From an uncultured Planctomycetales bacterium (GTDB taxonomy: Bacteria; Omnitrophota; Gorgyraeia; Gygaellales; Profunditerraquicolaceae): DNA of 30,566 nucleotides. Both the position numbers and the translations under genes were made by a program. The stretch is taken from positions 1 through 30,566 of the forward strand of contig CAZDUF010000004.1 of the NCBI GenBank assembly GCA_964508555.1, in the 5' to 3' direction. Below, piece after piece: positions 1-18,938 of this stretch (positions within the stretch are counted from its first letter, which is position 1; every line of letters begins with the position of its first letter). The notes below the pieces were generated by a model, which saw nothing but the letters and a program-made list of their open reading frames with translations, was not told the origin of the DNA and ran no database searches.

Positions 1-1555
1 TCGTTACCGCATCTGCCCTGATCTGCAGGTTATCCCACGGTCCTGTCACATCTCCCTGAAAAATAACCGACACATTCATGTCATCGGAAACATTCGTATC
101 CCATCCTGCAAAACCTGTCCCCCCCACAGTGCCATTAATCAACAAACCGCCGGCGCGCACGCTGCCGTTCACGTCAAGTTCTGCCGCAGGATTCACGAGG
201 TTAATACCAACCGCCCCCAGAGTATCGATGATACTTCCTCCGGCAAGCGCCGTGCCGTTCCATCTGGCGACCTCACCCGCTCCGAAAACCCCGACCTGCG
301 GATCCGTCTCTCCGGGGAATGTGATCGTGACATTCGTAGCGTTGGTAATCCTGCCGTCTTCATCAACCACGATGCGCGACACGCTTGAGCTTGAACCATA
401 CGCCCCCGCATCGACTCCCGATGTCTGCAATTCAGATGCGCCGACTGCGCTGACGCCTATTTCTGACGCGCCCACGGCGTCCGGCATAATTTGTAAATTA
501 TCCCACGGTCCGGTGACGTCTCCCAGAAACACGGTAGACACATTCAGATCATCGCTTGCGTTCGAATCGAAACCGCTGAAAGCCGAACCACTTAATGTGC
601 CGTTAATGATCAACCCTGTGCCGCGGATAGCTCCGGCGACATCAAGTTTAGCCTGCGGTGTAGAGGTGCCGACGCCGACATCCTGGGACGCATCTGCGGT
701 ATACAATCTGCTGCCTGCCTGCTCCCAGGCCGTATTCCCCGAGAGATTCGCGACCGACGAAAGCGAACTCCCGTCAGGGAATACAAATCCGCCGCTCAAA
801 GACTGAATACCTCCGTTCACCACAAGCTTGTAACCGCCTACGGTGGTGCCGATACCGACATTGCCGCCGTCAGCAACAATCACTGCCATTGTACCGCCGT
901 CATACAGACGCAATATGTCGCCGCTCCCCTGCTGTGTAACATTCAATACTGGGGTTGTTGCATTCGCGACAACAGTAAGAGGTGCCTCCATAGTATCGGC
1001 CTCGTCTGAACGAATGAACTGCGCGTGATTGAGACCGTCGAAACGATCGGAGTTAAGCGCGCCGACTGACGGTACGACTTTCAAGCGCGGCGTCATTTCG
1101 CCATCGTCATCAACCTCGATGGTCATATAGTACTGCTGATTGAAATCCATGGATGAAGGAAACACGGTTTCGCTGCCGAGATAACACGATATGATGCCGT
1201 GGCTATCTGCAGTCAAGGTTTGCGTCTCTTCCCACAAAACGCTCCCCCCGGTCTCATTTTCGTAGAAACGGAAGGTGAAATCATGCTGACCGGTCACCGG
1301 CGTATTCGTGCTTGAAGTCACCCGTGCCTGGAAAAAGATCTCCTGAGGGACATCAGCAAAGACATGCGAAACGGCTGTCGTCAACGTCATTGCGAGGGCA
1401 AAGCCCGAAGCAATCACAAGTAAGAATAATTTACTAAAGATTGCATCGTCGGCCCTCGGTTCACCCGGCCCTATCGGATGGGCCGGTGCAGGCCTCTGCC
1501 TAGTCCTCGCAATGACGGTGTCTCTTGTTTGCTCCCGCGCTGAAGTCCTATTCAT
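1..1555 (-). CDS. Secreted repeat-containing fibre/adhesin-like protein, 3'-truncated by the window edge (518 codons visible)
   Basis: Not in the ORF track. I translated it by hand from ATG 1555 to position 2 with no stop: MNRTSAREQ...FSKLFLLVIASGFALAMTLTTAVSHVFA|DVPQEIFFQARVT...TGQHDFTFRFY...NSDRFDGLNHAQFIRSD...GNVGIGTT...GAYGSSSSVSRIVVDEDGRIT...GDVTGPWDNLQI (twice). These motifs resemble phage tail-fibre and bacterial trimeric fibre repeats. Confidence 0.85.
   Translation of the reverse strand, partial: MNRTSAREQTRDTVIARTRQRPAPAHPIGPGEPRADDAIFSKLFLLVIASGFALAMTLTTAVSHVFADVPQEIFFQARVTSSTNTPVTGQHDFTFRFYENETGGSVLWEETQTLTADSHGIISCYLGSETVFPSSMDFNQQYYMTIEVDDDGEMTPRLKVVPSVGALNSDRFDGLNHAQFIRSDEADTMEAPLTVVANATTPVLNVTQQGSGDILRLYDGGTMAVIVADGGNVGIGTTVGGYKLVVNGGIQSLSGGFVFPDGSSLSSVANLSGNTAWEQAGSRLYTADASQDVGVGTSTPQAKLDVAGAIRGTGLIINGTLSGSAFSGFDSNASDDLNVSTVFLGDVTGPWDNLQIMPDAVGASEIGVSAVGASELQTSGVDAGAYGSSSSVSRIVVDEDGRITNATNVTITFPGETDPQVGVFGAGEVARWNGTALAGGSIIDTLGAVGINLVNPAAELDVNGSVRAGGLLINGTVGGTGFAGWDTNVSDDMNVSVIFQGDVTGPWDNLQIRADAVT
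1385..1517. repeat. Palindromic miniature element (Rickettsia-palindromic-element/MITE-like) inside the coding frame of the fibre gene
   Basis: Perfect 13-bp terminal inverted repeat CGTCATTGCGAGG (1385-1397) / CCTCGCAATGACG (1505-1517). Inner stem CGAAGCAATC (1406-1415) / GATTGCATCG (1439-1448) with one mismatch. Nested hairpin CCGGCCC (1465-1471) / GGGCCGG (1480-1486). Confidence 0.85.
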
Positions 1556-1561: not shown

Positions 1562-2347
1562 TTAGCGTTTCGTATTGAGCGCTTCAGTAACTTCTTTTGC
1601 CTTCTTCCCGAAAAACGGATTGCTCGGATCAATCTCTGCTGCCTTCTTCCACTGGACCAGCGCTTCCCGCAGGAGCCCAAAGCCCTCAAGCGTCTGCGCA
1701 TAGCGACCCCGTAAACCTGCTGAATTCGGTTCCGCGTTTACTCTCTGCTGATACATCGCCAACGCCTTATCTTTCATGCCGGCAGCGACATAGGCGTTGA
1801 TAAGAATATCTCCGAAGTACTGGTCATTTGGACTCTGCTGGACGATCGGCTCAAGCATCGCGATAGCCTTCGGCGCCTCACCGGCAAGCACATAGTAATC
1901 GATCAGGCGCACTTTATATCCATGATCCTGCGGGTTCGCAGCCTGCAATCCTTCGTAAATACGGGCAACCTTATTCCAATCCTTCAGCCGCACATAGCCT
2001 TCCGCTATGGCTTTTTTCAAGGGGACATTCTCAACACCCGGTTTCTCGCGCGCTTCAAGGACAGTCACGATTTCCTGGATTTTTTCCGGATTTTGCTCCG
2101 CAATCGTATACAACTCAAGAACCGCCCACTCATGGATATCACCATGCTTACCTGCGGCTACCGTATCTGCGATCGAGCGTATCGCGTCATCTTTCTTTCC
2201 GGCCTTCACGAGCGACTCGATATTCCTGCGCGCCGCTTCTGACGGCGTCACTGCAGGGTTTGTTTTCTCTGCCGCACACACAGGCCGGCAGAATACCAGG
2301 GACACCACCATGCCGCTTACCGCTGCCACTGCCATCATCTGTCTCAT
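1562..2347 (-). CDS. Secreted TPR-repeat protein
   Basis: Signal peptide (MRQMMAVAAVSGMVVSLVFCRPVCA|AE) and helical TPR-like repeats ending in ...PQD, ...SPND, ...EPNS, ...DPSN. Confidence 0.85.
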   Translation of the reverse strand: MRQMMAVAAVSGMVVSLVFCRPVCAAEKTNPAVTPSEAARRNIESLVKAGKKDDAIRSIADTVAAGKHGDIHEWAVLELYTIAEQNPEKIQEIVTVLEAREKPGVENVPLKKAIAEGYVRLKDWNKVARIYEGLQAANPQDHGYKVRLIDYYVLAGEAPKAIAMLEPIVQQSPNDQYFGDILINAYVAAGMKDKALAMYQQRVNAEPNSAGLRGRYAQTLEGFGLLREALVQWKKAAEIDPSNPFFGKKAKEVTEALNTKR

Positions 2348-2361: not shown

Positions 2362-3960
2362 TTATCTCTTCCAGAACAGAATCTTCTCTTGTAACTCGGA
2401 TACCGTTGCCTCATCCCCTACCGTCCATATCCACTGCGCAGGCGTCGGGTCTTCTTCATCGATCGAAATCGCGCCGTCTGCGTTCAAATCATAACCGCTT
2501 TTCACGTAAAAATAATGGTTGGCGTATACAAGATCCGTAAAGGTTGCTTCGCGCTGCAATGTCCAGGCTGACCAAGACTGGTTATCGATACGCACGGCGA
2601 AAAGCGCGCCCTGTCTGCTCGATTCGAACGTAAACGCGGCCTGCGTTTCCACTGTCGCTGCCGAAGGACCGCTGATAATGCGCGTGTCAGGTGTCAGCCT
2701 GTGCAACGTTATCTGATCGGTATATGCGCCGGAAATATTACCCGCAGCATCCAGAAATTTGACAAATACCGTCTTGACACCGTCGACGTCAGGCTCCAGC
2801 ACCAGCCAGCTCGTAATCACCGTCTGGTAAGGATACGGATGATTCATCTCGGTGTCGAAAATACCGTCGTTGGAGATGACCACAGACGCCACACTCGAGA
2901 CTGCGTCCGAGGCGTCAAGGTGCAGCGAAACGTACGCGGAATGCGACACCGGAGCTCCGGCATTGATACTGAATGTCCCTGACGGCGGCTGTGAATCGGC
3001 GACAAACTCCCAGGCTTGAGAAGCTGCATTGCCCGCCATATCGCGCGCCGTAACCACGACGGTATTCTTGCCTTCCGCCAGATATTCCTCAGAACCCGAG
3101 GAGAATATTCCGGTCTCTGTGTCGTATGATCCGCTCACTTGCCTGCCGTTGAGCTCCATGCGCACGCTGGTCGGGTCAACGCCGGAATCGGCATCAGCGA
3201 TACGGCAGGCTACCGCGATTTTATTATCTGAAAGCAGCGCTCCGGACGCGGGACCCAACTGATTCACGTATGGCCCGAGGCGGTCGATCCAGATCTCAAA
3301 CGAACGCACGCTGTCCATTTCGGGAATCCCTGATGAATAAAACGGCGCGACGTACATCACATGCCGGCCGTTTGCGATAGCGCCGTCGGCAAACTGGAAC
3401 TGCGGGGCGTACGTATCAATCGTGCCGTCAGGGCTGGCATCAACCGCTACGGAGAAACCGTCCACCAGCGCAGCCGGTTCAACAATAATGCCCCAGGAAA
3501 TATACGGGTCGTCATCTTTCTGCCAGGTTTTCTCAGGTATAAGCTCACCCAACACCTCGGCCCGGCAGATGATTTCGCTGATCAGCCAGTCTTTGTCCTC
3601 TCCCAGAACCTCATCCATCCCGTATATGAGCTGCACCTGCCCTGCCTGCAGGCTGAACTGGCCGCTGGAAGCGGATGAAAGCGGGATGAGACCTTCTCCG
3701 ATAATCGACATCACCATCATATGGCTCGATGAGGTTGTCGGCCCTCCGCCGTTGGCGAAAGCGACCGCATCGATCTGGAACGAACCTCCGGTCATCTCAA
3801 CTGCCTCAACCTGCGCATAACAAAACAACATCGCGAATATAAAGCATCCGATTGAAATCAATAGGGTTTTGCTCCAGCTTGAATCTCCCAATAAAAAACC
3901 CGATATCCGCTTTTCGTGGATATCGGGTAGCCCCGCGGGGCGCCGCCTGTGTTTTTTCAT
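2362..3960 (-). CDS. Secreted Ig-like/fibronectin-like multi-domain protein
   Basis: ATG at 3960 overlaps the upstream stop (ATGA), so it is preferred over the track start at 4065. Signal peptide ending AQVEA; beta-sandwich motifs (IDRLGP, NTVVVTARDMAGN, DSQPPSGTFSINAGA, VFVKFLDAAGN, TPDTRIISGP). Confidence 0.75.
   Translation of the reverse strand: MKKHRRRPAGLPDIHEKRISGFLLGDSSWSKTLLISIGCFIFAMLFCYAQVEAVEMTGGSFQIDAVAFANGGGPTTSSSHMMVMSIIGEGLIPLSSASSGQFSLQAGQVQLIYGMDEVLGEDKDWLISEIICRAEVLGELIPEKTWQKDDDPYISWGIIVEPAALVDGFSVAVDASPDGTIDTYAPQFQFADGAIANGRHVMYVAPFYSSGIPEMDSVRSFEIWIDRLGPYVNQLGPASGALLSDNKIAVACRIADADSGVDPTSVRMELNGRQVSGSYDTETGIFSSGSEEYLAEGKNTVVVTARDMAGNAASQAWEFVADSQPPSGTFSINAGAPVSHSAYVSLHLDASDAVSSVASVVISNDGIFDTEMNHPYPYQTVITSWLVLEPDVDGVKTVFVKFLDAAGNISGAYTDQITLHRLTPDTRIISGPSAATVETQAAFTFESSRQGALFAVRIDNQSWSAWTLQREATFTDLVYANHYFYVKSGYDLNADGAISIDEEDPTPAQWIWTVGDEATVSELQEKILFWKR
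3898..3928 (-). terminator. Intrinsic-terminator-like hairpin located inside the 5' end of the Ig-protein gene
   Basis: Perfect 11-bp stem ACCCGATATCC (3898-3908) / GGATATCGGGT (3918-3928). On the minus strand it runs into TTTTTT. Confidence 0.5.
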
Positions 3961-4502
3961 CGGCTCACTGGGATATGGACTGTAAATTCCTGCTTTTCCT
4001 GGTCGTCTCTCATCCGGTATTCCACCTTCACCATTGCCGGAATACCGCTCGACTCTTGCCTCCACTCATGTTGCCAGTTACTGGCGTTACCGTACCAAAA
4101 CATACACTCGGCCACGCCTTCCAGAGAGGGCACATCCTGCGTTCCCCATGTTGCGAAATCGAAATCTGCGGGTTGCTCTATGAAACGATCGATCGTCTTC
4201 GTCTGTCCGTTGTACGCATACCGCACTTCCGCAAGAACGTCTGCCTGCGCCGTGACAAAAGCGAATGATACTTGGAGAGCCTCAAAACCGGCTTTCCCCT
4301 CCTCCTCAACCGCTACCAGCGACTGAATATTCCGTGCCATCTTCTGGAAGAAAACCCTTTGGCGCTGGATAGAATCTGCGAATTTCTCTCCCTGGTGAAA
4401 CGACTTGAACGTCTGCACCATCGAAACCAGGACCAGCGTGATCACCACGGTAAAGATCGTGAATGCTATGATCACTTCTACCAGCGTGAATGCCCGCCTC
4501 AT
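3957..4502 (-). CDS. GspJ/PulJ-like minor pseudopilin
   Basis: Class III signal MRRA|FTLVEVIIAFTIF with E+5; 181 aa; C-terminal W...GIPAMVKVE pattern typical of GspJ-like proteins. Confidence 0.8.
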   Translation of the reverse strand: MRRAFTLVEVIIAFTIFTVVITLVLVSMVQTFKSFHQGEKFADSIQRQRVFFQKMARNIQSLVAVEEEGKAGFEALQVSFAFVTAQADVLAEVRYAYNGQTKTIDRFIEQPADFDFATWGTQDVPSLEGVAECMFWYGNASNWQHEWRQESSGIPAMVKVEYRMRDDQEKQEFTVHIPVSR

Positions 4503-6079
4503 TACTCTGCCGCAATGGCAACTCCGGCCTGTGCCGGCATGTTGTCGGCGCTCACCTTTTTCTGCTCCTGCACCTGAGCAGCACGAGCCAGATATTCATT
4601 CGACCTGGCAGTATCGCCTGCCAGCTGGTAGATATGAGCTAAATGACGATAGGTGATAACGAGTTCCGGATTCCGCGCGATCGCCTGCTCGTAATAGGCG
4701 ACTGCCTCCTGATACCTGCCGGTCACCTCATAAATATTGCCCGCGTTATGATACGGATCCGCATAATGAGGTTTGAGAGCAATCGCTCTCTTGAACTCTT
4801 CGATAGCTTTCTCGTAATTCCCTTCTTTTGCGTACACGTCTCCCATATTGTTGTGCGCGCGGGGGCTTTCAGGCGAAACCTCAACCGTGGCCCTCCAGAG
4901 TTTCTCGGGAGTTCTCCAATCTTCGTTCCGTACTACCGTACGCGCGGCATACCCGGCGATAATGAATGAACAGAGGGCTAACCCAATTCCTTTCATACGT
5001 TTCCTGCTGAATAAGCTCTGATAGGCAAACGCCATGATGATACTCAACATGATCGATGGCGTATACACATACCTCTCGGCAAGCAGCCAACTGATGGTTA
5101 CCGGGCTGTATGTCGGAGCGAGGAATAAAGCGAACAAGAGGATCCCGAAGAAAACAGGGCGCGCCCGCTCATATATGATTGTTAGCACGACAGCGCCAAA
5201 AACAAGCGCCAGCAGCCCCATGCGCAGCCAGAAAATTGTGATGATCGGAGGCTCATGATACAGTGACAACTCTGCCGGCCAGAAGAGCAATCCCAAATGG
5301 GAGAAGAGCGAATACACCATATTGAAAAGAGGATTCGTCCATTGGAACCCCCCTTCCATTTCCTTCGATACTGACACGGCCCTGCCTGCTATGTCCATTT
5401 TGCTCATGTAGAGGCGCAGGACAAGGATGATAAAGAAAGGGACTATCCACTTCCAAGTTCTGCGGATACGCTGAAATGTCGCATCGAATATTACCAGTAG
5501 CACGGGAAATACAAAGTAAAACGCGAAATTACGGTAGATAAAATATGAAAAAACGGCGAGCGCCCCGAGGTACCAGCGAATATACACGGTTTGAACCGAA
5601 TCCGGCCGCTGAGGTTGAACCGCGGTCAACCCCTGGGGTTGGATCGAACCAAGCTGGCGTGTCGCCCGATAGTACAAGAGTAACGTGCCCAGAGTAAACA
5701 AACCTACCAACACATACGGGCGGCCCGATATCCAGGTCACAGCCTCGGCATGAATAGGATGCACCGCAAACAGCGCCGCTCCGAGCAAACTCGCACGTTG
5801 CCTGAAGAAAAGGCTCAAAAATACGAAAACGAGAATCGTCATGACGCTATGCGCCAGGATGCTGACCGCGTGATACGGCACTGGGTTCGTCTTTGTTGCC
5901 CGGTACACCAGACTGTTCAGCGTATTGTGCGGAAACATAAGATAGCGCGCCGTATCTCCCAAATCCTTGTTCTCGACAATGTCCGCAACGTCATCTGACA
6001 CGAACTGATTCGGCAGCGAATTCGCGTACACCAGAAAACACAATGCGACTAAAAATATGTATACGTACTTTTTTTTCAT
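4502..6079 (-). CDS. TMTC-type GT-C glycosyltransferase (putative protein O-mannosyltransferase) with C-terminal TPRs
   Basis: First-loop DD motif (VSDDVAD), YHAVSILAH, LFAVHPIHAEAVTWISGR, ERYVYTP, RNEDW...LW, SPRAHNN; many TM segments; three TPRs. Confidence 0.85.
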   Translation of the reverse strand: MKKKYVYIFLVALCFLVYANSLPNQFVSDDVADIVENKDLGDTARYLMFPHNTLNSLVYRATKTNPVPYHAVSILAHSVMTILVFVFLSLFFRQRASLLGAALFAVHPIHAEAVTWISGRPYVLVGLFTLGTLLLYYRATRQLGSIQPQGLTAVQPQRPDSVQTVYIRWYLGALAVFSYFIYRNFAFYFVFPVLLVIFDATFQRIRRTWKWIVPFFIILVLRLYMSKMDIAGRAVSVSKEMEGGFQWTNPLFNMVYSLFSHLGLLFWPAELSLYHEPPIITIFWLRMGLLALVFGAVVLTIIYERARPVFFGILLFALFLAPTYSPVTISWLLAERYVYTPSIMLSIIMAFAYQSLFSRKRMKGIGLALCSFIIAGYAARTVVRNEDWRTPEKLWRATVEVSPESPRAHNNMGDVYAKEGNYEKAIEEFKRAIALKPHYADPYHNAGNIYEVTGRYQEAVAYYEQAIARNPELVITYRHLAHIYQLAGDTARSNEYLARAAQVQEQKKVSADNMPAQAGVAIAAE

Positions 6080-6091: not shown

Positions 6092-6146
6092 AACTACCCC
6101 ATATCCGCAAACCGGTCAACCGGCAAACCGGCTAACCAACTACCCC
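6092..6146. repeat. 8-bp tandem repeat flanked by a 9-bp direct repeat
   Basis: AACCGGTC (6110-6117), AACCGGCA (6118-6125), AACCGGCT (6126-6133), plus a degenerate fourth unit AACCAACT; AACTACCCC at 6092-6100 and 6138-6146. Confidence 0.7.
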
Positions 6147-7804
6147 GGCCCCAACACCCGCAACACCTCGGCAACGTTGGTCGCGCCGAAGACTATCTTC
6201 TCCCACCCGTCGTCGTACATGAATGTCATACCCTGGGCGCGACAAGCCTTGATGATTTCGGTGGAACTCGCCTTCTCGACCGTGAGCCTGCCGATCTGAG
6301 GAGTCATCTCCATAATCTCGAATATCCCCACCCTGCCGCTGAAACCGGTGTGCAGGCAATCCTGACAGCCGTGCGCCTCCCACACCTCCACTTCCTTGTC
6401 GGCATAAGGTGCTTCCTTGAACAACTTCTTTGATTGCTTAGATTTACATTTCTTGCATAATACCCTGACAAGCCGCTGCGCAACCACGCCGTTCAAGCAA
6501 GACGCGATCAGGAATGGTTCAATACCCATGTCGACTAATCTGGTTACTGCAGACGCGGCGTCATTCGTATGGAGTGTTGAAAATACCAGGTGTCCGGTGA
6601 GAGCCGCCTGGATTGCGATTGTTGCGGTTTCCAGATCCCTTATCTCCCCCACCATAATGATATCGGGATCGTGTCTGAGTATCGACCGCAACCCGTTGGC
6701 GAATGTGAGATTAACTTTCTGATTCACCTGAATCTGCCTGCAGAAATCAAGGTGGTACTCAACGGGATCCTCAATGGTAATAATATTTTTCTCGACTGAT
6801 TGAATAATCGAAAGCGACGCATAGAGTGTTGTCGTCTTACCGCTTCCTGTCGGTCCGGTCACCAGGATAATCCCTGACGGTTTCCTGATCAGCTGTTCGT
6901 ACCTCTCCAGATGTTTCTGTGACATTCCTAACTGATTGAGTGTCAAAACTTTCTTGTTCTGTTTCAATAACCGCAAAACGATGCTTTCCCTCTCAATCGT
7001 AGGGATAACCGATACACGCACATCCAGGGCAGTTCCGTCAAGCTCGACATTGAATCTTCCATCCTGGGGCTGCCTGCGCTCTGCGATATCCAGGTTCGCC
7101 ATGATCTTGATGCGGGATACAAAAGCGTTATATGCGGTCGATTCAGGAGGCGTAATCTCTTTGAGCACGCCGTCGATACGGAGCCGCAGGCGCATCTTGT
7201 CGCGTTGGGCTTCGATATGAATGTCAGACGCTCCGAACTTGAGCGCCTGCAGCAACAGGAGATTTACCGCTTCGATGATGGACGGTTTGGAGAATTCCTC
7301 TTTCAGATAACCGTCATCTATCTTGAGAGCAGGGTGAGCTGATTCCTGACGCTCGTGTCTTTGCCCTTCTCTCCTGTCGCAGCATCTGCTCAAGACATCG
7401 ATGAGCTCATCCTCCCTGACCAGGTACGGCTTGATAAAGAGTCCGGTGCGAAAGCGCAGCTCATCATATATAGAGGAATCCAGCGGATCGAGCACGCCGA
7501 CCGCAAGCTCGAAATTATCCTTGAATAACGGGATAACCTTCTTCTCCCAGAGCAGCTCCGCGGGCACCAGCGCCAACAGCGCTTTGTCCGGAGAAAAAGT
7601 ATTCAGCCGGAATTCTTCGAGATTCAGATGCTTGCCGAGAAATCCGGTCAGCTTCTCTTCGGAGATGACTTTCAGCTGACGCAGGGCCTGTACCAGCGAC
7701 ACGGAGCTGCGCTGCTGCTCGAGCCGAATGGTCTGCATCTGCGCGGGCGATACGATCCCATCGCGTTCCAGCTGTTCTTCAAGATTCAATTGCTGCATAA
7801 TCAC
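6140..7804 (-). CDS. gspE: GspE/PilB-family assembly ATPase
   Basis: Walker A GPTGSGKTTT, TIEDPVEY, LRHDPDIIMVGEIRD, TGHLVFSTLHTN, tetracysteine motif CKKC...CQDC, and an N-terminal MshEN/N1-like region. Confidence 0.95.
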   Translation of the reverse strand: MIMQQLNLEEQLERDGIVSPAQMQTIRLEQQRSSVSLVQALRQLKVISEEKLTGFLGKHLNLEEFRLNTFSPDKALLALVPAELLWEKKVIPLFKDNFELAVGVLDPLDSSIYDELRFRTGLFIKPYLVREDELIDVLSRCCDRREGQRHERQESAHPALKIDDGYLKEEFSKPSIIEAVNLLLLQALKFGASDIHIEAQRDKMRLRLRIDGVLKEITPPESTAYNAFVSRIKIMANLDIAERRQPQDGRFNVELDGTALDVRVSVIPTIERESIVLRLLKQNKKVLTLNQLGMSQKHLERYEQLIRKPSGIILVTGPTGSGKTTTLYASLSIIQSVEKNIITIEDPVEYHLDFCRQIQVNQKVNLTFANGLRSILRHDPDIIMVGEIRDLETATIAIQAALTGHLVFSTLHTNDAASAVTRLVDMGIEPFLIASCLNGVVAQRLVRVLCKKCKSKQSKKLFKEAPYADKEVEVWEAHGCQDCLHTGFSGRVGIFEIMEMTPQIGRLTVEKASSTEIIKACRAQGMTFMYDDGWEKIVFGATNVAEVLRVLGPG

Positions 7805-7807: not shown

Positions 7808-10735
7808 TTAGTTTCCGGATGCGATAATCTCCTCCCCTGACGGAGAGAGGACTTTCGCGGTCACGAAGATCATCAGATTTTTGCGCTGCACGACGTCGGA
7901 ATCTTTCTTGAAAAGGTTCCCCAGGACGGGAAGACTCCCCAGAAGCGGAACCTTGGTCACGGTCTTGGTGCGGCTCTCCTTGACGAGACCGCCGAGAACG
8001 ACCGTGTCCGCGGAGTTGACGACGACGGTCGTCGAGAGATTACGCGAGGTGAACAACGGCAGCGTGACATTCCCGGAATACTGAAAGGCGTCGGCCGTGG
8101 CCTCGCTCACTTCGGGAATAAGTGACAGGTTGATGGTCTTGCGGTCTGCGCCGACGGTGGGAACCACTTTCAGGATGATGCCGACGTCCCTGCGCAGGAA
8201 ATCCTTGGGCACGTTCTGATAGGCGGTCTCCCCTGCGTCGTTAAAATCTCCGTCACCGTTCACGTCAAACTGCACGATCTCGAATTCATACCGCGTGGGA
8301 TAGATCCATTCGTCGACAACCTTGATCGACGCCATCTGGCTGTTCAGCGTCGTGATACGAGGACTCGAAAGGGTCTTTATGCGCTTGGTCTCCTCGAGGG
8401 CGTGCAGCACGACCTGGAATTGCGGATACGTGAGCACTCCCTTGTAGGTAAAATTCAACCCTTCCGACGCGCGCGTAAAGGACGTGAAATCGAACCCGCT
8501 GTTCGCTGCCAGCCCTTGCGCGAAGTTGCCGTCTTCCTTGTCGAAGGCGAAATCGTCGTTGAGCTTGAGCTCGATACCGAAATCCTTGGTATCGGTGATA
8601 TCGATCTCGATGAACCGCGCCTCGATCAACACCTGCACCGGCTCGATATCCAAAGAATACAGCATCTCCTCGAGCATCTGCAGATTCTGCGGCGTGTTAC
8701 GCGCAATCAGGGCATTAAGCCTTTTATCATAGGTAAGCTTGGCATCAGCCGGCCAGGCAACCACTTCTTTAAGTGTATCTTCAATGGTGTAAATCTTGTT
8801 GATCTGGGCGGACGATCCCCCCAGCCCGGTCGAGCCGCCGGAAACCGGCGTGAAATCGGTAAACAGTCCGCCGCCTCTCAAGAGATAATACACCCGCGTC
8901 TCCATGGCCTCGTTTGCGACCTCTTCGGGATCGGCGATCCAGACGATTTCCTTGTCGATGCGGTACACGAGGCCGAGGCTTTTGGTGAGGTACTTGATCA
9001 CTTCGATGATGTTGGCGTCGTCGAAGCGCGCGGTCACGGTGGGGTCGAGATTCAACACCTTCTGCGACGCGACAAAGTTTACCCCGGACTCCTGCGAGAG
9101 AAATTTGACGACAGATTTCAATCCTACCTTGTCGAAATCCATGGTCACGCGTTTCTCCTGGAGCTTTCTCCGGATAATCGGGGTTTCGATGAGAGGCGTC
9201 ACCGACTGTTTTTCTATCTTCTTCGGCGGGTCGACGTACGGAGGAATCTGCGTTTCATACACCTCGCGGATCATGGTGTCCTCCGTATGGACGATATCGG
9301 TCTTCAGCACACCTCTGGCCTGCTGTTCCTGAGCGGCGAGCTTCTTCTCACGCGCCTGCTCGATAAAACGCTTTGCCTCAGATGTGTACTTCGTGCGCGG
9401 ATTGCCTTCGAGAGAAACCACCCGCTCGAATCCTTTGATCGCCTCGTCATACATGCCTTCGTTATACAGGCGTTTGGACACCTGCCAGAGCGCATCCACC
9501 CTGCGCATCTTCTCCGCTTCATCGTGCGCCTTCATCGCCGCGTCAACGTCATCGGCAGCCAGGGCAACGCCGCGTTCCTGGCGGCCTTCATATACTTCTG
9601 CTATTTCCGCCCCATCGTCGTCAAGCAACGCGTCTTGTTCAGCCAATAATGCCTGTAAACGCCGCTGGCGATCGTCGGTCTTCGTCGCAGGCGCACTCCG
9701 TGGCGTGACCGTCCGTTCGTCCTTTGCCAAACGGCGCCGCTCGCGCAGAGCATCCTCTTTCTCCTGCAGCCGGTATTCTTCTTCCATCTGCTCTATCTCG
9801 GCGCGCCGCTTCTGCATCTTATCTTCGCGCTGGCGCAGCAAATCTTCTTCGCGCGCGGCGAGCATCTCTTCTTTGCGCATCTGCTCCTGGCGCAACTGTT
9901 CCATGCGCTCCTCGCGCGCGGCGCGCTCCGCGTCAAGCTTAGCCAGACGCTCGGCGTCTTTCTTCAAACGCTCGACGTCTTTAATCCGCTGCGCCTCCTG
10001 CGCATCAAGCAACGCCCGCTGCTTCTGGGCCTCCATCTCGGTGCGCTTCTGAATCTCGGCAATCTGCAGTCGCCGTTCCTCTTCTTTCTGTTTCAACTGC
10101 AGCTGCGCCTCCCGGGCCTTGCGGTCGGCTTCTTTTCGGGCGCTCTCAATCTCAAGTTTCAATTTGCGTTCCCGTTCTTCAATCTCTTTTTTACGCTGCG
10201 TAACCGCCGTCTGACGCTCGAGCTCAAGCTTTCGCACAAGCTGCGTGCGCTCCAGTTCACGCTGTTTCGCCGCCTTCTGCGCCTCATCCTGCAGCTGCTT
10301 CAGTCGGGCTTCTTTTTCCGCTGTTTCTTTGGCACGCGCGGACGCGCTTTCACTCAGCATGCTCGTGAGATTGCTGTCGGCAGCGGGCACGGCAGTCTTG
10401 ATACAGGACTCGCTCGGAGGCTTGGTGCCGATCTTGGCAAGCAGATTCTCGGCATCTACGCGCGTCGGTTTGTATCCCTTGCCCTCGCGCCATTGCCGCA
10501 AAGAACTATCGGTATTCAGAACCGCAAGCACATAATTGAGTTTCTCGCGCGCGCGGTCGTAACAGCCCTTCTGGTAGAAAATCAACGCCTCACGATATGC
10601 GCTGTCGACTCCCTGGCTCGCTTCGAGCACGCGGTCGTCTTGCACGTCGTACGCACCTGCGAACCCGAACACACCCGCCATCAGGCACGCGACACACAGA
10701 CTGACACACGTTTTGCCCATGGAATATCTAGCCAT
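7808..10735 (-). CDS. gspD: Secretin (GspD/PilQ family) with long N-terminal coiled coil
   Basis: C-terminal secretin motifs QVLIEARFIE, TLSSPRITTLN, DVGIILKVVP, DTVVLGGLV, KVPLLGSLPVLGNLFK, LMIFVTA; N0/N3-like domains; signal peptide. Confidence 0.92.
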   Translation of the reverse strand: MARYSMGKTCVSLCVACLMAGVFGFAGAYDVQDDRVLEASQGVDSAYREALIFYQKGCYDRAREKLNYVLAVLNTDSSLRQWREGKGYKPTRVDAENLLAKIGTKPPSESCIKTAVPAADSNLTSMLSESASARAKETAEKEARLKQLQDEAQKAAKQRELERTQLVRKLELERQTAVTQRKKEIEERERKLKLEIESARKEADRKAREAQLQLKQKEEERRLQIAEIQKRTEMEAQKQRALLDAQEAQRIKDVERLKKDAERLAKLDAERAAREERMEQLRQEQMRKEEMLAAREEDLLRQREDKMQKRRAEIEQMEEEYRLQEKEDALRERRRLAKDERTVTPRSAPATKTDDRQRRLQALLAEQDALLDDDGAEIAEVYEGRQERGVALAADDVDAAMKAHDEAEKMRRVDALWQVSKRLYNEGMYDEAIKGFERVVSLEGNPRTKYTSEAKRFIEQAREKKLAAQEQQARGVLKTDIVHTEDTMIREVYETQIPPYVDPPKKIEKQSVTPLIETPIIRRKLQEKRVTMDFDKVGLKSVVKFLSQESGVNFVASQKVLNLDPTVTARFDDANIIEVIKYLTKSLGLVYRIDKEIVWIADPEEVANEAMETRVYYLLRGGGLFTDFTPVSGGSTGLGGSSAQINKIYTIEDTLKEVVAWPADAKLTYDKRLNALIARNTPQNLQMLEEMLYSLDIEPVQVLIEARFIEIDITDTKDFGIELKLNDDFAFDKEDGNFAQGLAANSGFDFTSFTRASEGLNFTYKGVLTYPQFQVVLHALEETKRIKTLSSPRITTLNSQMASIKVVDEWIYPTRYEFEIVQFDVNGDGDFNDAGETAYQNVPKDFLRRDVGIILKVVPTVGADRKTINLSLIPEVSEATADAFQYSGNVTLPLFTSRNLSTTVVVNSADTVVLGGLVKESRTKTVTKVPLLGSLPVLGNLFKKDSDVVQRKNLMIFVTAKVLSPSGEEIIASGN

Positions 10736-10737: not shown

Positions 10738-11820
10738 TTACTCATCCTCCCGTTTGATCACGGTCAAGAAATTATCGCTTCCTTCAAGGATAACTTCAGT
10801 CTCCGAGAAATTTTTCAGGCGGAAATTATCGAACCGATCTCCCACCGACAGAAAAAGCGTCTCCTTGCGCATCGCATCTTCGATCACCGCTACCTGCTTG
10901 GTGCGCAGGAGCGCCCGCCCCTTGTAGAAAAACCGCTGCGCGGGCTTTTCTTCCTCCGGAGGCTGCGTCACGTCCTCCTCGACACCCGTCTGTTTCACCG
11001 GTATGAGAAACGGGCTTTTGCTGCGCAAGAGCGACACCGCAGTGTCGATCCCCGCGGGATACGATTCATCGGGGACCTGCGCCACGGTTATCTTTCCGTC
11101 TATTCCTTGTATATCAGACAAAGAAACGCTTAATGTCGAATATTTCAGCGAGACGTACACGCTCTCCGGCTCGACCCGGACTTTAAGCGCCTGGCTGCAC
11201 AGTTTCGGAACGATCCCGTTCATGCGGATCAGAAAATCCATCACCGTCGCGTGCGGAAACGCCAATTCCATTTCGGCGGGAACTTCGCGGGTGTCGGGCA
11301 GCGCGCTCTCTTTTGTCGGAGGAAGCGGTTTTGCCAGCGACACGTCGGCTCCCGACGCGACGGCCAACTCGGCGACTGAACGCATCGCGTAGAGCTGTCC
11401 CAGAAGCAGCGCCGCATCCGACTCAGACGGAAGTTTATCCGTGAACGAGAAACCGGAAAAATCCGTTTGCCGGGAATCAGCAAGGGCTTTTAATTCGGTT
11501 GAGGAGCGGTTCAACTCCTCGGCGAAGAGAATGCTCATATCGTAATTCGAGCGCGTCCATTTCGCGCGCGGGTCAAACAGCGCGCCGAGAGCTGCAAGGC
11601 GGACCGCGCTCGATGAAACCGCGGCGCGCAGGTCAACGACTTTCTTTTCGCTAAAGGCCCCGAGCGCGTCATCGAGCTGCGCGGCGCTGGCGGCTGCGCG
11701 GCGCGCGTACGCTTCCTCGCGCGCGCGCAGCACAAACGCGCTCAGGCACAGGCAGAGTACAACCGCGAGTAACGGCTTCCATGCAGGGGCGCGCGCGGTA
11801 GCAGCAGAAGCGGCGATCAT
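10738..11820 (-). CDS. PilO-like protein with C-terminal PilP/GspC-like domain
   Basis: N-terminal TM helix, helical linker, ferredoxin-like PilO pattern (EMELAFPHATVMDFLIRMN...LKVRV), Pro/Glu linker, then YKGRAL...AVIED...FLSVGDRF...VIL. Position between the pilMN-like gene and the secretin. Confidence 0.55.
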   Translation of the reverse strand: MIAASAATARAPAWKPLLAVVLCLCLSAFVLRAREEAYARRAAASAAQLDDALGAFSEKKVVDLRAAVSSSAVRLAALGALFDPRAKWTRSNYDMSILFAEELNRSSTELKALADSRQTDFSGFSFTDKLPSESDAALLLGQLYAMRSVAELAVASGADVSLAKPLPPTKESALPDTREVPAEMELAFPHATVMDFLIRMNGIVPKLCSQALKVRVEPESVYVSLKYSTLSVSLSDIQGIDGKITVAQVPDESYPAGIDTAVSLLRSKSPFLIPVKQTGVEEDVTQPPEEEKPAQRFFYKGRALLRTKQVAVIEDAMRKETLFLSVGDRFDNFRLKNFSETEVILEGSDNFLTVIKREDE

Positions 11821-13274
11821 GTGGATATCCCCTGCCGGCGCCGCATATCGAATCTGATTTTGAATTCGATTGCCGCTTGCTCATCCTGTGCCGCGCCTGC
11901 TCCTCCGTTTCCTCCGGAACCGGAGGAAACGACCTTGACGTCGCTGACCGATTCCGTGCCGCGCAACTTCACGATGAACTGGTTGATCTCGTTGTAATCG
12001 GCAGAGGTGCCGCTGATGTACAACTCTAATCCTTTTTCCCCTTCTTTGAGCTCAAACTCCTTGATCTCGATGCCGGTTGACGCCCCTGCGGAAACAGCGG
12101 CCATCGCTTTCAGGAACAGTTCCTGGTTATCGATCTTCGACTGCAGGAATTGCGTCGCCGCGTCGAGGCGAGCTTTCTTCTCTTTGAGATTCTTGATCTC
12201 GGGAATATACGCCGCAGCCTGCGCGCATGTGCGGGCGGCACGCGAACGCGCATCCTGCAGACGGAACACGGAACGCACGTTCACGAATACGAGCCCCGCG
12301 CACGCCGCGGCCAGAGAATACACCGCGAGTTTTTCAGCGTAATTGATGCGGCTGGCGATCCGCTCCGTGCGCACCTGTTCGCCGATCAGGTTCACGTACA
12401 CAGTCGACGACGCGCGAAGGCACGTCAGCCCGTAACCGATGCTGGAACCGATGGAATACGGATCGGACGGCAACACGGCTTTCGGGCAGGAAATTTTACG
12501 CAAGGGGTTAACCTGAATAATTTCGCAGCCGGGGAAATGTTCCCGCAACGCGCTCACGATCGATGCGGGATAATTCGCTCCGCTTAAATACACGCGCATC
12601 GAAGACTTCGACGACTTGGACGGATTCTGCAGATAATGCGTGTTGACCACGCGTTTGACTTCCTGCAGAAACGCATCCGAAGACTGCGCGTTGTCGGTGA
12701 GCGAGCTTCTGCCGATAGGAAGCGGATATGTCCAAAGCCTCCTGTCTTCATGAAACATGATATCGGATACGCGGCCGCGCATATTTAATAAAAGAAACTT
12801 TCCCTTCTCACCGTAATTGTGCAGAATCAGATTATACAATCCGTACGCCGCGGGTACGACTCCGGACACGGAGAATCCCGCAGAGGACAGGCGCGTGCGC
12901 GTCTCTTCGACAATCTCTCTGCGCGCGGCAACAAGCGTGATCACCGGTCCCGAAGGCACCACCTGCCAGAAGCATTCATCGAGTTTGAGCGGCAGGTTCA
13001 GTTTCTGGAGCGCGGGAAGGATGTCCCTGCGAACATCGCGAGCGCGGGAAAGCGCAGGAGTCGACTGGATATGTTTTAAGAAAAGACTCGGAACCGGAAG
13101 GCTCGTGACCGTTACCTGATTTTTGTTGACGTTCAGCGCGGAAAGATTTTCTGCGGAAGGGACAACATGCTGCGAAGTCAATACCACCTTGTTGTGGCGC
13201 AGGCTGAGCTCAGTCACGACAGTCGCGTCACTATCTATATCAATGCTCAAAATTGTCTTTGGTTTTAAGCCCAT
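11817..13274 (-). CDS. pilM: PilM-PilN-like fusion (pilus assembly/alignment protein)
   Basis: ILSIDID start, actin-like region (FLLLNMRGRVSDIMF, RVYLSGA, GSSIGYGL), VNLIG, TM helix, coiled coil, PilN-like LYISGTSADYNEINQFIVKL. Start placed at ATG 13274; 13325 is also possible. Confidence 0.7.
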   Translation of the reverse strand: MGLKPKTILSIDIDSDATVVTELSLRHNKVVLTSQHVVPSAENLSALNVNKNQVTVTSLPVPSLFLKHIQSTPALSRARDVRRDILPALQKLNLPLKLDECFWQVVPSGPVITLVAARREIVEETRTRLSSAGFSVSGVVPAAYGLYNLILHNYGEKGKFLLLNMRGRVSDIMFHEDRRLWTYPLPIGRSSLTDNAQSSDAFLQEVKRVVNTHYLQNPSKSSKSSMRVYLSGANYPASIVSALREHFPGCEIIQVNPLRKISCPKAVLPSDPYSIGSSIGYGLTCLRASSTVYVNLIGEQVRTERIASRINYAEKLAVYSLAAACAGLVFVNVRSVFRLQDARSRAARTCAQAAAYIPEIKNLKEKKARLDAATQFLQSKIDNQELFLKAMAAVSAGASTGIEIKEFELKEGEKGLELYISGTSADYNEINQFIVKLRGTESVSDVKVVSSGSGGNGGAGAAQDEQAAIEFKIRFDMRRRQGIST

Positions 13275-13406
13275 CGCCGCCTTTCGTATTCGCCGCGTGA
13301 ACCGTGACGCATCAACCAAACACATTGCGCGCATCAATGAGCGAAGTATGCTGCGCGCTTCAATCTGTCAACGAACTGAGTCTTATCCTCCTATATATAT
13401 TATTTA

Positions 13407-13705: not shown

Positions 13706-16420
13706 TCATTCCTTAACTAAACCGCCACGATCATAGATAATTCGGATACTCTCTGTTGCCGACGTCTTATCACGCACCAGATACTCTCCCCTGCTCTTGA
13801 GCTCATATACATCAGAGCGCACCGTAAGACGCGAGTGCATGCCAAGAAACGCAGGGTTCAGAAGTATTAGGTCGCCGACTCCCAGAAGGTCGCCGTTGCG
13901 GTTACCAAGCGGCCGGTTCTCAAGCACCGCCTGCACGAGCGAGCCGTCGTTGAAAACGCTCTTCAATACCTGCGTGGTTGCAGTGTTGACATTGATGCGC
14001 CCGGCCACTGAAAGCACCGGCTCAAGAATTATTTTTTCCAGCGCGATTTTTTTGCCGGATGTGTTTTCGATACGCACATAAAGACTTCCCTTGTCAGCGC
14101 CGCTTATCTGGGCCATGCCGTAATGCAATCTGTTTTCGCGAAAGGCAAGACTCAAATTCGCACCCGGAGATTCCGTTTGCGCTACGCTCACAAGCACCGA
14201 AATATCGGAGACATCCTCTCCTTCGATACTGACCCAGTACGCGGCAGCAGGAACCGCATCGAATTTCCATTCGTGCGATGCGCCGGCATCCATTTCAACG
14301 GCGCTCCCCTCCTGCCCCGAGAACCAGAGTTCCTGAACGCCGTATGCGAAGGAATCGCACACCAGCGCGCAATCGCGCGCGTCAAACCTCTCCCATTCGA
14401 CGCCGTTTGATATCTGCACGAGCTCGCTCAAATCTTGCAACGGCCTGTTGAATAATTTAATCTGCGCGGGGCTATGCTTCGTCAATCCTCCCTGCTGCGT
14501 GTACATGCCCAGATTCTCATTGGTTGCACCAGGAGTCGCGAGCGATTTGGCCGAAGAAAAATACCAGCCGTCTACCAGACCGTCTTTATCCGCGTCAACG
14601 CGCGAGGCAGGGTCTGAGCGTTCGATGCTGATAAAAGGCATGACCATCGTTGCGGCATATTCGGCCGCATCGATTGTCCTCCCGTTTTTGTTTTTCAAAA
14701 CCACAATGCCGCCGGCATCGGGAAAGAGATCGAACGTGCGGTCAATGACCGGTTCATACGCTCCGAAATCGGGATGCCGCGCGCCGAAACCCCAGGCGTT
14801 CCTGAACGACACGCCGTTGCCTCTGAGCTTGCCAGGCGCCTCAGAACCGTCGTCGTTATCCGTTGCCAGCACCAGGTGCTGAAACGGCTGCACCACGGTA
14901 TTCTCTCCGACGACTGCCGGGTACCCTTTCACCAGTTCGCCCTCGGGCGTCATCACCTCAAGAGAACAGCCGCCGATGTCAACCGGCTGCGATGACAGAT
15001 TGATCAACTCGATGAACTCGGCATCAGGCTGGCGCGAGAGCCTGATCCCGCCGAAGAGGGCCTGTTTCACCGGATCGTTATTCACGACGCTGACCTGAAT
15101 GATTCCCGTTTCGCCGAGCGAGACAGCAGATGAAAGAAAATCTCCCGCTGACAAATCCTTTCCTGAGACGCCGGCGCAGGTGACGTCTCCCACGTAACCG
15201 CCGGGCGATCCTGAAAGCACCATGACGTGATACTTGCCTTGCGGCAGATGCGCCGCGTTAAACGTGAATTCCCCCCGCTCTCCCTTTCCCAGCGCGAGCG
15301 TCGCCGTGAAATCCTGCCAGGGAGCCGGCATGATCTCGTTAATAGCGATCGCCTCGCTTCCCGCCGCAACGCTGCGCGACATACCCTGCGCCGCGCCTGC
15401 CTCGACAAGACGCAGGTGCGAAAACACGCTTTCGCCGTCAGACGCCGGAGCAATCGTCATCGTAAACCCTCCACCCGACACACTCACCTTCTGCGCCAGT
15501 TTCTCCGCATGCTTATACACCTGCCCCTGAATGCTGCCGATGGTATCGTTCGACGAGCTTGCGTACACAAAACAATCATACTCCCCGTCAGCAATCGCCA
15601 GGTTCGACCAGTGAAACACGCCGGCAAGAGAACCGGCGACGGCGCGGTACACATCGCCCGTAAACTGCCACCCTCCCTGATCGATCATGCCCGACGGCGT
15701 GACTTTCGAAAGAAGCGACTCGACAAACTGGGTCTGGCTCAAATCCTCATCGCCGGCATCAACAACGAGCGCGGCTTTCTGCCGCGCGTCCTCGATGCCG
15801 CGGTCGAGAAATACGTCCAGAATCAGCTGCGCGTTCGCTGAATTCAGATACGGCCTGCGGTTATTCTTCAGATCGAATTCCCTGTCCCGGGAATACACGG
15901 TTACGTACGGAATCAGTGACGCGGTCTCATTCGTGCCGAGGACTCTGCTTAATTCTTCGACAGCGCGATACGGACGGCCGGCAATAATCGATGCGGCGCG
16001 TGACGGGTCGAGGCTGCATTCTGAAAGGAGGTTCGCGAGTTCCTGCTCGCTGCAGACGTTCAGATGGAGTTTCCCTGCCTCATCCGACACGCTGATGCTG
16101 AATCTGCCGAACCTGTTTCCCGAGGCGTCCCTGACTTCAAACCATCGCTCCCCGGCAAAATGGGAAAAAGACACATCATCAAGCGAATCGATGGCATTGA
16201 GCTTCTTCTCCGTCTGCAGCACCTCCTGCGCGTAGACGATTCCCGCTTCAGCAATGTATCGCGAGCGGACCGCGTCCAGATGCTTGACTGCCGCGAACTG
16301 CTCCTGTTGAGCGAGCATAAAGAAAGCGATGCCGATAACGAAGAACATCGCAAGAAACGCAATCACGATGATCAGCGCCTGAGATTTATTGCTGTATATA
16401 CGTAATGAACTTCTCGGCAT
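13706..16420 (-). CDS. gspK: GspK/PilX-like large minor pseudopilin with helix-hairpin-helix motifs, lamin-tail domain and beta-sandwich modules
   Basis: KSQA|LIIVIAFL pilin-like helix without E+5, SRYIAEAGI, SVSDEAGKLHLN, PYVTVYS, RINVNTAT, LTVRSDVYELKSRG; LTD motifs INEIM and EFIELIN. Confidence 0.75.
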   Translation of the reverse strand: MPRSSLRIYSNKSQALIIVIAFLAMFFVIGIAFFMLAQQEQFAAVKHLDAVRSRYIAEAGIVYAQEVLQTEKKLNAIDSLDDVSFSHFAGERWFEVRDASGNRFGRFSISVSDEAGKLHLNVCSEQELANLLSECSLDPSRAASIIAGRPYRAVEELSRVLGTNETASLIPYVTVYSRDREFDLKNNRRPYLNSANAQLILDVFLDRGIEDARQKAALVVDAGDEDLSQTQFVESLLSKVTPSGMIDQGGWQFTGDVYRAVAGSLAGVFHWSNLAIADGEYDCFVYASSSNDTIGSIQGQVYKHAEKLAQKVSVSGGGFTMTIAPASDGESVFSHLRLVEAGAAQGMSRSVAAGSEAIAINEIMPAPWQDFTATLALGKGERGEFTFNAAHLPQGKYHVMVLSGSPGGYVGDVTCAGVSGKDLSAGDFLSSAVSLGETGIIQVSVVNNDPVKQALFGGIRLSRQPDAEFIELINLSSQPVDIGGCSLEVMTPEGELVKGYPAVVGENTVVQPFQHLVLATDNDDGSEAPGKLRGNGVSFRNAWGFGARHPDFGAYEPVIDRTFDLFPDAGGIVVLKNKNGRTIDAAEYAATMVMPFISIERSDPASRVDADKDGLVDGWYFSSAKSLATPGATNENLGMYTQQGGLTKHSPAQIKLFNRPLQDLSELVQISNGVEWERFDARDCALVCDSFAYGVQELWFSGQEGSAVEMDAGASHEWKFDAVPAAAYWVSIEGEDVSDISVLVSVAQTESPGANLSLAFRENRLHYGMAQISGADKGSLYVRIENTSGKKIALEKIILEPVLSVAGRINVNTATTQVLKSVFNDGSLVQAVLENRPLGNRNGDLLGVGDLILLNPAFLGMHSRLTVRSDVYELKSRGEYLVRDKTSATESIRIIYDRGGLVKE

Positions 16421-16820
16421 AGGAGGTTCCCCGCAGCGAAAAAATCACGGTCAATTCCACATGGTACAGCGTTACGCCGGGATCCATGGTATTCGGTGAA
16501 ACGGACATGGCCCAGGAAATACCCTGTGACTCACCCTTCGTGGTGCCGGCAGACGGCCGCTCCAGGCTCTTGAGCTCTTCGAGTTTCTGCTGGGCTACTT
16601 GGGTAACGAGATTGATCTTACGGCTATAAGCGAAAGAGTGCCACGCAGAAGGAAAAATATTAAACAGGCTGATAATGCCCAGAGCAAGGACGCTCAAGGC
16701 GATAAGTATCTCGACTAACGTAAACGCTGTTTTTTTAAATGGTTTCGCTCCTGAATGAATGCTGGAGGGTGGTCTGCTCTTTGCCGCTGCCGCCGTGAGC
16801 TTACCGGCGGCAGGCATCAT
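16386..16820 (-). CDS. GspI/PilV-like minor pseudopilin
   Basis: KKTA|FTLVEILIALSVLALGI; AQQKLEELK; short beta-rich C-terminus; ATG overlaps the gspF stop. Confidence 0.8.
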   Translation of the reverse strand: MMPAAGKLTAAAAKSRPPSSIHSGAKPFKKTAFTLVEILIALSVLALGIISLFNIFPSAWHSFAYSRKINLVTQVAQQKLEELKSLERPSAGTTKGESQGISWAMSVSPNTMDPGVTLYHVELTVIFSLRGTSYAEKFITYIQQ

Positions 16821-18368: not shown

Positions 18369-18378
18369 GTTGACCTCC

Positions 18379-18813: not shown

Positions 18814-18938
18814 AGCAGACATCTCCTCTCTTGATTGTGGATCCCGATTATAGCCCGAAACCGTACAGGGATCCTATTGCATTGCACGTTGAGGGATTTG
18901 TTCTCGTTTCTTTGGAGTACTCCGTCTCGCAAAAAGGC

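Follow-up and report, generated by a model that had tools for sequence, protein, structure and literature searches.

The window analysed here is a 30,566-nucleotide stretch of DNA, taken as a whole (GenBank assembly GCA_964508555.1, contig CAZDUF010000004.1, positions 1 to 30,566), from an uncultured bacterium of the phylum Omnitrophota, and the gene under study is the one cut by its left edge, a minus-strand frame that appears to encode a surface fibre of the mosaic adhesive trimer (MAT) type. MAT fibres were described in 2024 as prey-recognition adhesins of Bdellovibrio, by authors who saw a possible connection with type IV pili (PMC10769870). An earlier interpretation made from the letters alone, here called the sequence-only reading, had proposed an open frame from the ATG at nt 1555 to the window edge, and translation indeed gave 518 codons down to nt 2 without a stop; the frame is absent from the open reading frame (ORF) track because ORFs that leave the source sequence go unlisted. 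Along the 17.8 kb that lead down to the fibre gene, every gene lies on the minus strand in a tightly packed series, in the order GspF, GspI-like, GspK-like, PilM/PilN-like fusion, 360-aa protein, secretin, GspE/PilB, membrane protein with tetratricopeptide repeats (TPR), GspJ-like, Big_13, small TPR protein and fibre (Table 1), with gaps of 14 nt between the Big_13 and small TPR genes and of 6 nt between the latter and the fibre gene. We believe, with a probability of roughly 0.8, that the frame encodes the N-terminal 518 residues of a MAT-type surface fibre of this Omnitrophota bacterium, acting through the mechanism proposed in the last section.

Table 1. Features of the fibre gene and of the genes upstream of it, in window coordinates.
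Feature	Position	Strand	Basis or remark
MAT-type fibre gene, 5' part (518 codons)	2..1555	-	Open frame; Omnitrophota homologues span 770 to at least 1935 aa
N-terminal leader	1358..1555	-	Sequence, hydropathy, orthologue comparison
MAT-type N-terminal beta-sandwich domain (predicted), aa 67-~165	1060..1357	-	AlphaFold2 model, NF053851 match
Neck motif LNSDRFDGLNHAQFIRSDEADTMEAPL	971..1059	-	Invariant across the four closest orthologues; weak match to phrog_972, tail fibre proximal subunit, E 0.017
Shaft rungs GNVGIGTT...KLVVNG...GGFVFPDGSS...DVGVGTSTPQAKLDVAG, aa 223-312	620..889	-	phmmer match to 8OND_A
Repeat copy 1, 69-70-aa block, aa 292-361, ending in GDVTGPWDNLQIMPDAV	473..682	-	Alignment
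Inter-block modules ASEIGVSAVGASEL, GAYGSSSSVSRIVVDEDGRITNATNVTI, ETDPQVG...ARWNGTAL	212..472	-	Recur in P0005, P0006, P0015, P0042
Repeat copy 2, aa 448-517, truncated by window edge	5..214	-	Alignment; branching of the run X1 graph
TPR protein with signal peptide, between Big_13 and fibre genes	1562..2347	-	Pfam TPR_14/19
Big_13 / Ig-like exported protein	2362..3960	-	Pfam Big_13, E 7e-7
GspJ-like minor pseudopilin	3957..4502	-	Pfam N_methyl and T2SSJ; conserved position
Polytopic membrane protein, C-terminal TPR (PilW/Tgl-like repeats)	4502..6079	-	Also in L003, L005, L006, L016
GspE/PilB-type assembly ATPase with MshEN domain	6140..7804	-	Pfam T2SSE, 3e-135
Secretin, 975 aa, long charged coiled-coil-like N-terminal extension	7808..10735	-	Pfam Secretin, 1.5e-37
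Alignment-complex genes: 360-aa protein and PilM/PilN-like (GspL-like) fusion	10738..13337	-	PilN; Amuc_1101 PilM-like, 1.8e-15; kept in L001, L004, L006, L014
GspK-like minor pseudopilin, lamin-tail-domain insert	13706-16420	-	Profile matches
GspI-like pseudopilin	16386-16820	-	Profile matches
GspF platform protein	16817-17836	-	GspF 304 versus PilC 267 bits

Family, domains and repeats of the fibre

The protein begins with an Arg-rich extension of ~38 aa, which is followed by a hydrophobic core (aa 39-62). After the core comes a predicted cleavage site for signal peptidase I, VFA↓DV (aa 64-66, with the mature chain starting at aa 67), and the leader contains no twin-arginine motif, lipobox or prepilin motif. 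ATG 1555 is the sole canonical start 5' of the core; the in-frame GTG at V47 falls within it. The leaders of the orthologues follow the scheme MFKK...h-region...VFA↓DVPQQ, and among the eight orthologues conservation sets in exactly at the cleavage site, with D67 (D/E-V/I-P-Q/R). Judged from hydropathy and from this alignment, the fibre likely carries a type I (Sec) signal peptide, as had been proposed, with an n-region that is unusually long.

MAT proteins are defined by a signal peptide and, after it, a beta-rich domain that is conserved and about 130 aa long, for which their authors report no structural homologue in the PDB, and they end in tips that are either S74 chaperone/proteases (with an SDxxxK motif) or other adhesive folds (Caulton et al. 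2024, PMC10769870). The window protein has the same build, with a putative signal peptide, a beta-rich N-domain and a mosaic of a conserved base and swapped distal modules. Modelled with AlphaFold2, the N-domain forms a six-stranded beta-sandwich with a pLDDT above 90 across ~90 residues, and it matches the NCBIfam model NF053851 (Bdello_MAT_N) with an E value of 6.3e-6 and 26 bits against the curated cut-off of 60 bits of this Bdellovibrio-specific model, so that membership is to be understood at the level of a superfamily. Of 21 aligned relatives, 17 match the same model at E <= 0.01, the best at 9.3e-10. NF053851 is the sole curated model that matched, as no Pfam-A model recognised the N-domain and the whole fibre gave zero Pfam matches even at E 10; a sequence search of the PDB with the N-domain found no match either, and a fold search of the PDB and BFVD with its model returned generic Ig-like sandwiches only (E >= 1.5e-3, TM < 0.5). 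A profile of the domain, searched against a library of 1.84 billion representatives at 50% identity, detected 82,451 clusters (E <= 1e-3), or 44,087 under the stricter limit of E <= 1e-10, and among the best 150 hits listed the match nearly always begins 20-60 residues from the N-terminus.

Beyond the N-domain, residues 223-312 align with residues 200-283 of chain A of Bd2133 of Bdellovibrio bacteriovorus (PDB 8OND; phmmer, E 3.4e-6), which is the only significant match of the whole fibre protein to a solved structure. The matched region of 8OND comprises the last rungs of trimeric beta-helix domain 2, right before W913 (PMC10769870). The motifs NSDRFDGL...FIRSD, GNVGIGTT and GAYGSSSSV..I.VD.DGRIT, listed by the sequence-only reading, are all present in the translation, and its suggestion of a likeness to the Bdellovibrio MAT adhesins is supported by both the 8OND and the Bdello_MAT_N matches. 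The shaft modules reappear, in altered order and number, in unrelated-looking proteins of several phyla (P0005, P0006, P0015, P0025, P0042). A Peptidase_S74 domain (PF13884) ends five relatives that have the same N-domain (P0007, P0012, P0017, P0020, P0045), and in P0017 the SDxxxK motif is present as SDLRYK. Because of the Bdello_MAT_N and Bd2133 matches, the MAT architecture and the relatives ending in S74, we assign the window ORF, on sequence grounds, to the MAT family, which its authors had already noted in Omnitrophota, and from its homology to these fibres we infer that it probably trimerises.

The resemblance to the adhesins of Bdellovibrio bacteriovorus (Bd2133, PDB 8OND; Bd3182; Bd1334) extends to the signal peptide and beta-rich N-domain, to beta-helix rungs of the GNVGIGT type, to a conserved base with a variable distal part, to relatives with S74 or non-S74 tips and to a host phylum suspected of predation or parasitism (PMC10769870). 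The differences, however, are also clear: the N-domain of the window protein is only remotely similar to theirs, its shaft has a 156-aa composite repeat that has not been described for the Bdellovibrio proteins, and its gene ends an operon similar to those of type II secretion systems (T2SS) and type IV pili (T4P), whereas the Bdellovibrio fibres have no known delivery or anchoring system. An Omnitrophica MAT was listed by the authors of the family in their Supplementary Table S3 (UniProt A0A2H0LB00, COV76_08125, 713 aa, with an S74-like tip; PMC10769870). Compared through this table entry, it has the same phylum and family assignment as the window fibre; its genomic context was not discussed by the authors, and its tip is S74-like, whereas the complete T2SS-linked orthologues P0001 and P0004 have no S74 domain on record. 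A sequence search of the PDB with the tip of P0004 found nothing.

As short motifs such as NSD.FDG and GNVGIGT, and S74 ends like those of the relatives, are also found in phage tail fibres, a prophage or phage-derived tail fibre gene had to be considered as well, and the fibre does have PHROG matches, all weak (E >= 2e-4), to a tail protein (phrog_3269, E 0.002) and to a tail fibre (phrog_972, E 0.017). Phage tail fibres and tailspikes with a Peptidase_S74 chaperone share these shaft motifs with the window protein, and the S74 end with its relative P0017. The window gene is nevertheless cellular, as the sequence-only reading had inferred: it encodes a predicted Sec signal peptide and a non-phage N-domain, whose model has a best BFVD hit that is not significant (E 1.5e-3, TM < 0.5), and it lies within a conserved cellular operon, in a 30.5-kb window where the neighbours are all cellular and no phage genes were found anywhere. 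A scan of IMG/VR, in addition, confirmed no viral contig encoding a relative of the fibre. We rejected the prophage reading because of the cellular neighbours, the lack of a confirmed IMG/VR relative and the weakness of the PHROG matches, and regard a phage origin as very improbable.

The repeat that had been described in the shaft, with a spacing of 156 aa and a conserved block of about 70 aa, was also borne out. The peptide GDVTGPWDNLQI is found twice, at aa 345 and at aa 501; the respective Gly codons, nt 523-521 and nt 55-53, are 468 nt or 156 aa apart. The two blocks around it are identical at 42 of 69 positions and align locally with a score of 235, whereas 1000 shuffles averaged 42 (sd 7.3) and reached 78 at most. 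The full period comprises four modules: a VGxxxxxPxxxLDVxG rung; [DT]N.SDD...GDVTGPWDNLQI..DAV; GxYGSSSxVxxIxVDxDGRITxxxNVTI; and ETDPQVG...RWNGTAL. At the DNA level the copies are 60% identical and no long exact repeat is found, and for this reason we consider the duplication to be old, or recombined, and kept at the protein level. An AlphaFold2 monomer of aa 206-518 is non-globular and almost devoid of secondary structure, and with its low confidence (pLDDT 58, pTM 0.24) it would neither refute nor prove a fibre.

To see past the window edge we used a public freshwater metagenome, run X1, which holds 99% of the sequence words and was searched as short Logan contigs. These contigs break at nt 26-55 of the window, that is, at the codons of GDVTGPWDNLQI. 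The main contig has a depth of 6.4, and the one that overruns the edge, 102 nt long, a depth of 24.4. Two others match with four differences each: one of 118 nt and depth 10.8 over nt 2-55, and one of 869 nt and depth 6.4 over nt 18-55. Taken together, these loose ends hold a further copy of the repeat, with NDLNTVTVFA before GDVTGPWDNLQI and AAEIATGAVD past the window edge; the latter follows the pattern of copy 1 (ASEIGVSAVG), and the frame stays open. Most likely, then, the contig ends where it does because the assembler could not resolve further copies, and the fibre gene probably holds three or more 156-aa units. The checks that the sequence-only reading had proposed, for a stop just past the edge and for the number of repeats, thus favoured an open frame and a third copy, while leaving the attribution of that copy to this gene less secure. 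Scans of GTDB genomes and JGI metagenomes found relatives of the fibre at up to 63% identity. Antisense to the fibre gene, an ATG ORF at 78-806 (+) would encode a Pro/Ser/Thr-rich product of 242 aa, and is most likely no gene but a shadow ORF of the GC-skewed coding strand.

The upstream cluster and its conservation

Related loci, fetched with a 4-sequence alignment (A2), include eight Omnitrophota lineages (the window, L001/L002/L014, L003/L005, L004, L006, L015, L016 and L017), and in all of them the Big_13 gene is directly upstream of the fibre gene, separated from it in the window by the small TPR gene, which has no counterpart at the related loci examined. The genes for the GspJ-like protein, GspE and the secretin are present wherever the contigs reach, and the order is each time (PilMN and a gene of unknown function), secretin, GspE, (TPR membrane protein), GspJ-like pseudopilin, Big_13 and fibre. 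Orthologues of the Big_13 protein, 41-49% identical, were found at every related locus, and the genes downstream of the fibre vary from one locus to the next. The closest homologues of the fibre come from Omnitrophota, and the N-domains of the eight lineages are 55-79% identical, with similarity confined to the first ~190-340 mature residues (to aa ~255-403); complete orthologues have 770-801 mature residues, and that of L017 is still open after 1935. The linkage of fibre and machine is specific to one Omnitrophota MAT subfamily and has been retained over considerable divergence, and because gene order is conserved in eight lineages, the connection with the secretin that the sequence-only reading had inferred has firmer grounds than were available to that reading.

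Elsewhere the N-domain stands in other surroundings. No machine genes were present in the available flanks of N-domain loci outside Omnitrophota (Planctomycetia, Bacteroidaceae, Nitrospirota, an archaeon, Thermomicrobiales and metagenomes), and since these loci and most of the 82,451 clusters lack the adjacency, the domain needs no such machine in general. It heads giant proteins, one of at least 3217 aa in a metagenome-assembled genome (MAG) of Planctomycetia (L007, 3792-13445) and one of at least 1935 aa on an Omnitrophota-like metagenome contig (L017, 1533-7338), both of which run off their contigs. At three further loci it is fused to a beta-helix (L008) or to an FGE/SUMF1 domain (L012), or lies C-terminal to an F5/8-type module (L010). 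On a contig labelled as the archaeal MAG PL23a_bin.95, finally, an 896-aa protein (L011, 9653-12343) combines the same N-domain with GNVGIGT rungs, and it may be that MAT-like fibres reach beyond bacteria or that this MAG is contaminated.

As for the machine itself, its core parts score slightly higher on T2SS than on T4P models, all below equivalog cut-offs: the ATPase reaches 566 bits with the GspE model TIGR02533 and 556 with PilB, and the secretin 186 bits with GspD, 164 with Amuc_1098 and 150 with PilQ. Because this margin is slight and the scores lie under the cut-offs, we refer to it as a T2SS/T4P-like type IV filament machine. The secretin has an insert of ~300 aa (~aa 130-400), rich in Lys, Glu, Arg and Gln, which precedes the TPR, FecR_C/STN and secretin domains; its orthologues measure 563 aa (L001) and 785 aa (L003), the extension thus varying by lineage. 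The GspK-like pseudopilin, at 904 aa with a PF00932 insert, is much longer than the canonical ~330 aa, and its counterpart in L001 has 931 aa; a pseudopilin of such unusual size suggests an elaborate filament tip. The Big_13 gene, whose ORF was listed from 4065, likely starts at M36 (nt 3960); a PDB sequence search with its product found nothing, and a faint NCBIfam match (E 0.022) to PamT, a pilus protein of the candidate phyla radiation (CPR), was dropped, as Pam pili are chaperone-usher-like and CPR-specific.

Several genes further upstream deserve mention. Immediately 5' of GspF, at 17937-18398 and 18379-18822 (-), lie two tandem paralogous small lipoprotein genes (153 and 147 aa), whose products have a lipobox-like GC/AGC, a shared ending ...TDxMGTIGRTT[KR] and no Pfam match; it is a possibility that they are pilotin-like helpers. 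A second secretion-type ATPase of 481 aa, at 21073-22518 (-), is nearest to models of the FlaI/TadA/VirB11 type (FlaI, 2e-55) and not to PilT, with no obvious Tad or archaellum-like partner genes beside it. A candidate GspG-like major pseudopilin (28127-28597, -; N_methyl; TIGR01710, 9e-8) is found ~11 kb upstream of the main cluster, with housekeeping genes (Dus, an M42 peptidase, a flavo-diiron-like protein and a tRNA deaminase) in between. Seymour et al. (PMC10066038) assign Omnitrophota clusters of the kind described here to the type-4a pili and presume that they serve in attaching to host cells, with no mention of fibres.

Proposed delivery of the fibre and its possible role

In the mechanism that we propose, the Sec signal peptide would bring the chain to the periplasm, with cleavage at VFA↓DV. 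The beta-sandwich N-domain, of ~100-130 aa, would be the conserved cell-proximal base, a function suggested by the work on Bdellovibrio, while the remainder would trimerise into a beta-helical shaft of short interchangeable modules, arranged here as a 156-aa composite unit, and a variable tip past the window edge would bind a glycan or protein on the surface of another cell, be it host or prey. Delivery to the surface would be carried out by the neighbouring machine, which might retain the fibre at the surface as a cargo of the secretin or mount it on the tip of a pseudopilus, and synteny makes the Big_13 protein and the GspJ-like pseudopilin its candidate partners. Because the fibre gene is the conserved terminal gene of a T2SS/T4P-like operon, delivery by the adjacent machine appears the most likely route, and export through the secretin is plausible from gene order. 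Our more specific proposal, that the machine is dedicated to exporting or mounting the MAT fibre and that the Big_13 and GspJ-like proteins dock its N-domain, is a tentative one, to which we would give somewhat less than even odds. Surface-retained T2SS-like cargo and tip-mounted adhesin rank about level in our view, with an unrelated export route next.

There is a precedent for a T2SS substrate encoded beside its machine in the pullulanase PulA of the Klebsiella pul operon, and the fibre has in common with such substrates a Sec-dependent export, predicted in its case, and a gene beside a secretin/GspE cluster. T2SS substrates fold and oligomerise in the periplasm, and some stay attached to the surface; they are mostly globular enzymes or toxins, and we are aware of no trimeric fibre of 800 to 1900+ residues for which use of a T2SS has been demonstrated. 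The precedent for mounting is offered by PilY1/PilC, the tip adhesins of type IVa pili, which are large, Sec-exported, non-pilin proteins encoded with minor pilin genes. Like them, the fibre joins a modular, variable and putatively adhesive part to a conserved part that may serve in docking. After Sec export it could sit as an adhesin at the tip of a type IV pilus-like filament, its N-domain docked, perhaps through Big_13, on the GspI/J/K-like complex, and be taken by the growing filament through the secretin, much as PilY1/PilC adhesins ride on T4a pili. The fibre and Big_13 genes do follow directly after the GspJ-like minor pseudopilin gene in every lineage, and the oversized GspK-like protein with its lamin-tail insert hints at an exposed tip. 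The classification of such clusters as type-4a pili (PMC10066038) and the interplay with type IV pili raised by the MAT authors (PMC10769870) point in the same direction. However, the fibre has no sequence similarity to PilY1 or to any known tip adhesin, PilY1 docks by a C-terminal beta-propeller while the conserved part of the fibre is N-terminal, and PilY1, of which a survey in myxobacteria is available (PMC13190605), is no trimeric fibre. The window, moreover, has no PilT-type retraction ATPase, its second ATPase being FlaI/TadA-like, and the core components lean slightly to T2SS. We also know of no precedent for a three-fold fibre on the tip of a one-start helical pilus. A pilus-tip adhesin is, on balance, possible but on the unlikely side.

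It could also be argued that the fibre is an ordinary Sec-exported adhesin that reaches the outer surface by another route, and that its adjacency to the machine reflects shared regulation or inherited gene order. The huge size of the N-domain family, the absence of such neighbours at the Planctomycetia, Bacteroidaceae, Nitrospirota, Thermomicrobiales and archaeal loci, and the display of Bdellovibrio MATs with no dedicated T2SS reported (PMC10769870) are all in keeping with this. Against it stand the tight packing of the genes in the window and the persistence of the adjacency in eight lineages at the N-domain divergence given above, in spite of differing downstream genes and of the TPR insertion in one of them; because adjacency survives such divergence, we argue that the linkage is under selection, and we consider export by an unrelated route unlikely.

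Returning to a MAT-type fibre served by the adjacent machine, we acknowledge several points that weigh against it. Most N-domain clusters, and all the loci examined outside Omnitrophota, are not beside such a machine, and what ties the fibre to export by its neighbours is gene order. Promoter and terminator scans of the window performed no better than shuffles. The Bdello_MAT_N match, far under its cut-off, spans the first half of the model only. The C-terminus of the fibre lies beyond the window edge, with no tip or S74 domain within the visible 518 residues; the shaft, as modelled in monomeric form, came out too poorly to lend support; and the extra repeat copies of run X1 could stem from a paralogous fibre gene or from a related strain.

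Omnitrophota are uncultured, ultra-small bacteria with suspected parasitic or predatory lifestyles, and for them the fibre is a candidate host-recognition protein. The family to which its N-domain belongs, although it comprises over 80,000 clusters at 50% identity, had no Pfam match in our scan. As far as the searchable literature shows, the novelty of our finding is that a T2SS/T4P-like operon and an Ig-like partner gene are fixed companions of one MAT subfamily. This conserved linkage provides a concrete, testable candidate for the delivery and anchoring system of MAT fibres, a question that is open for Bdellovibrio, and if our interpretation is true, it would be the first such system to be identified, and also the first case of a type IV filament machine with a fibre as its cargo or tip.

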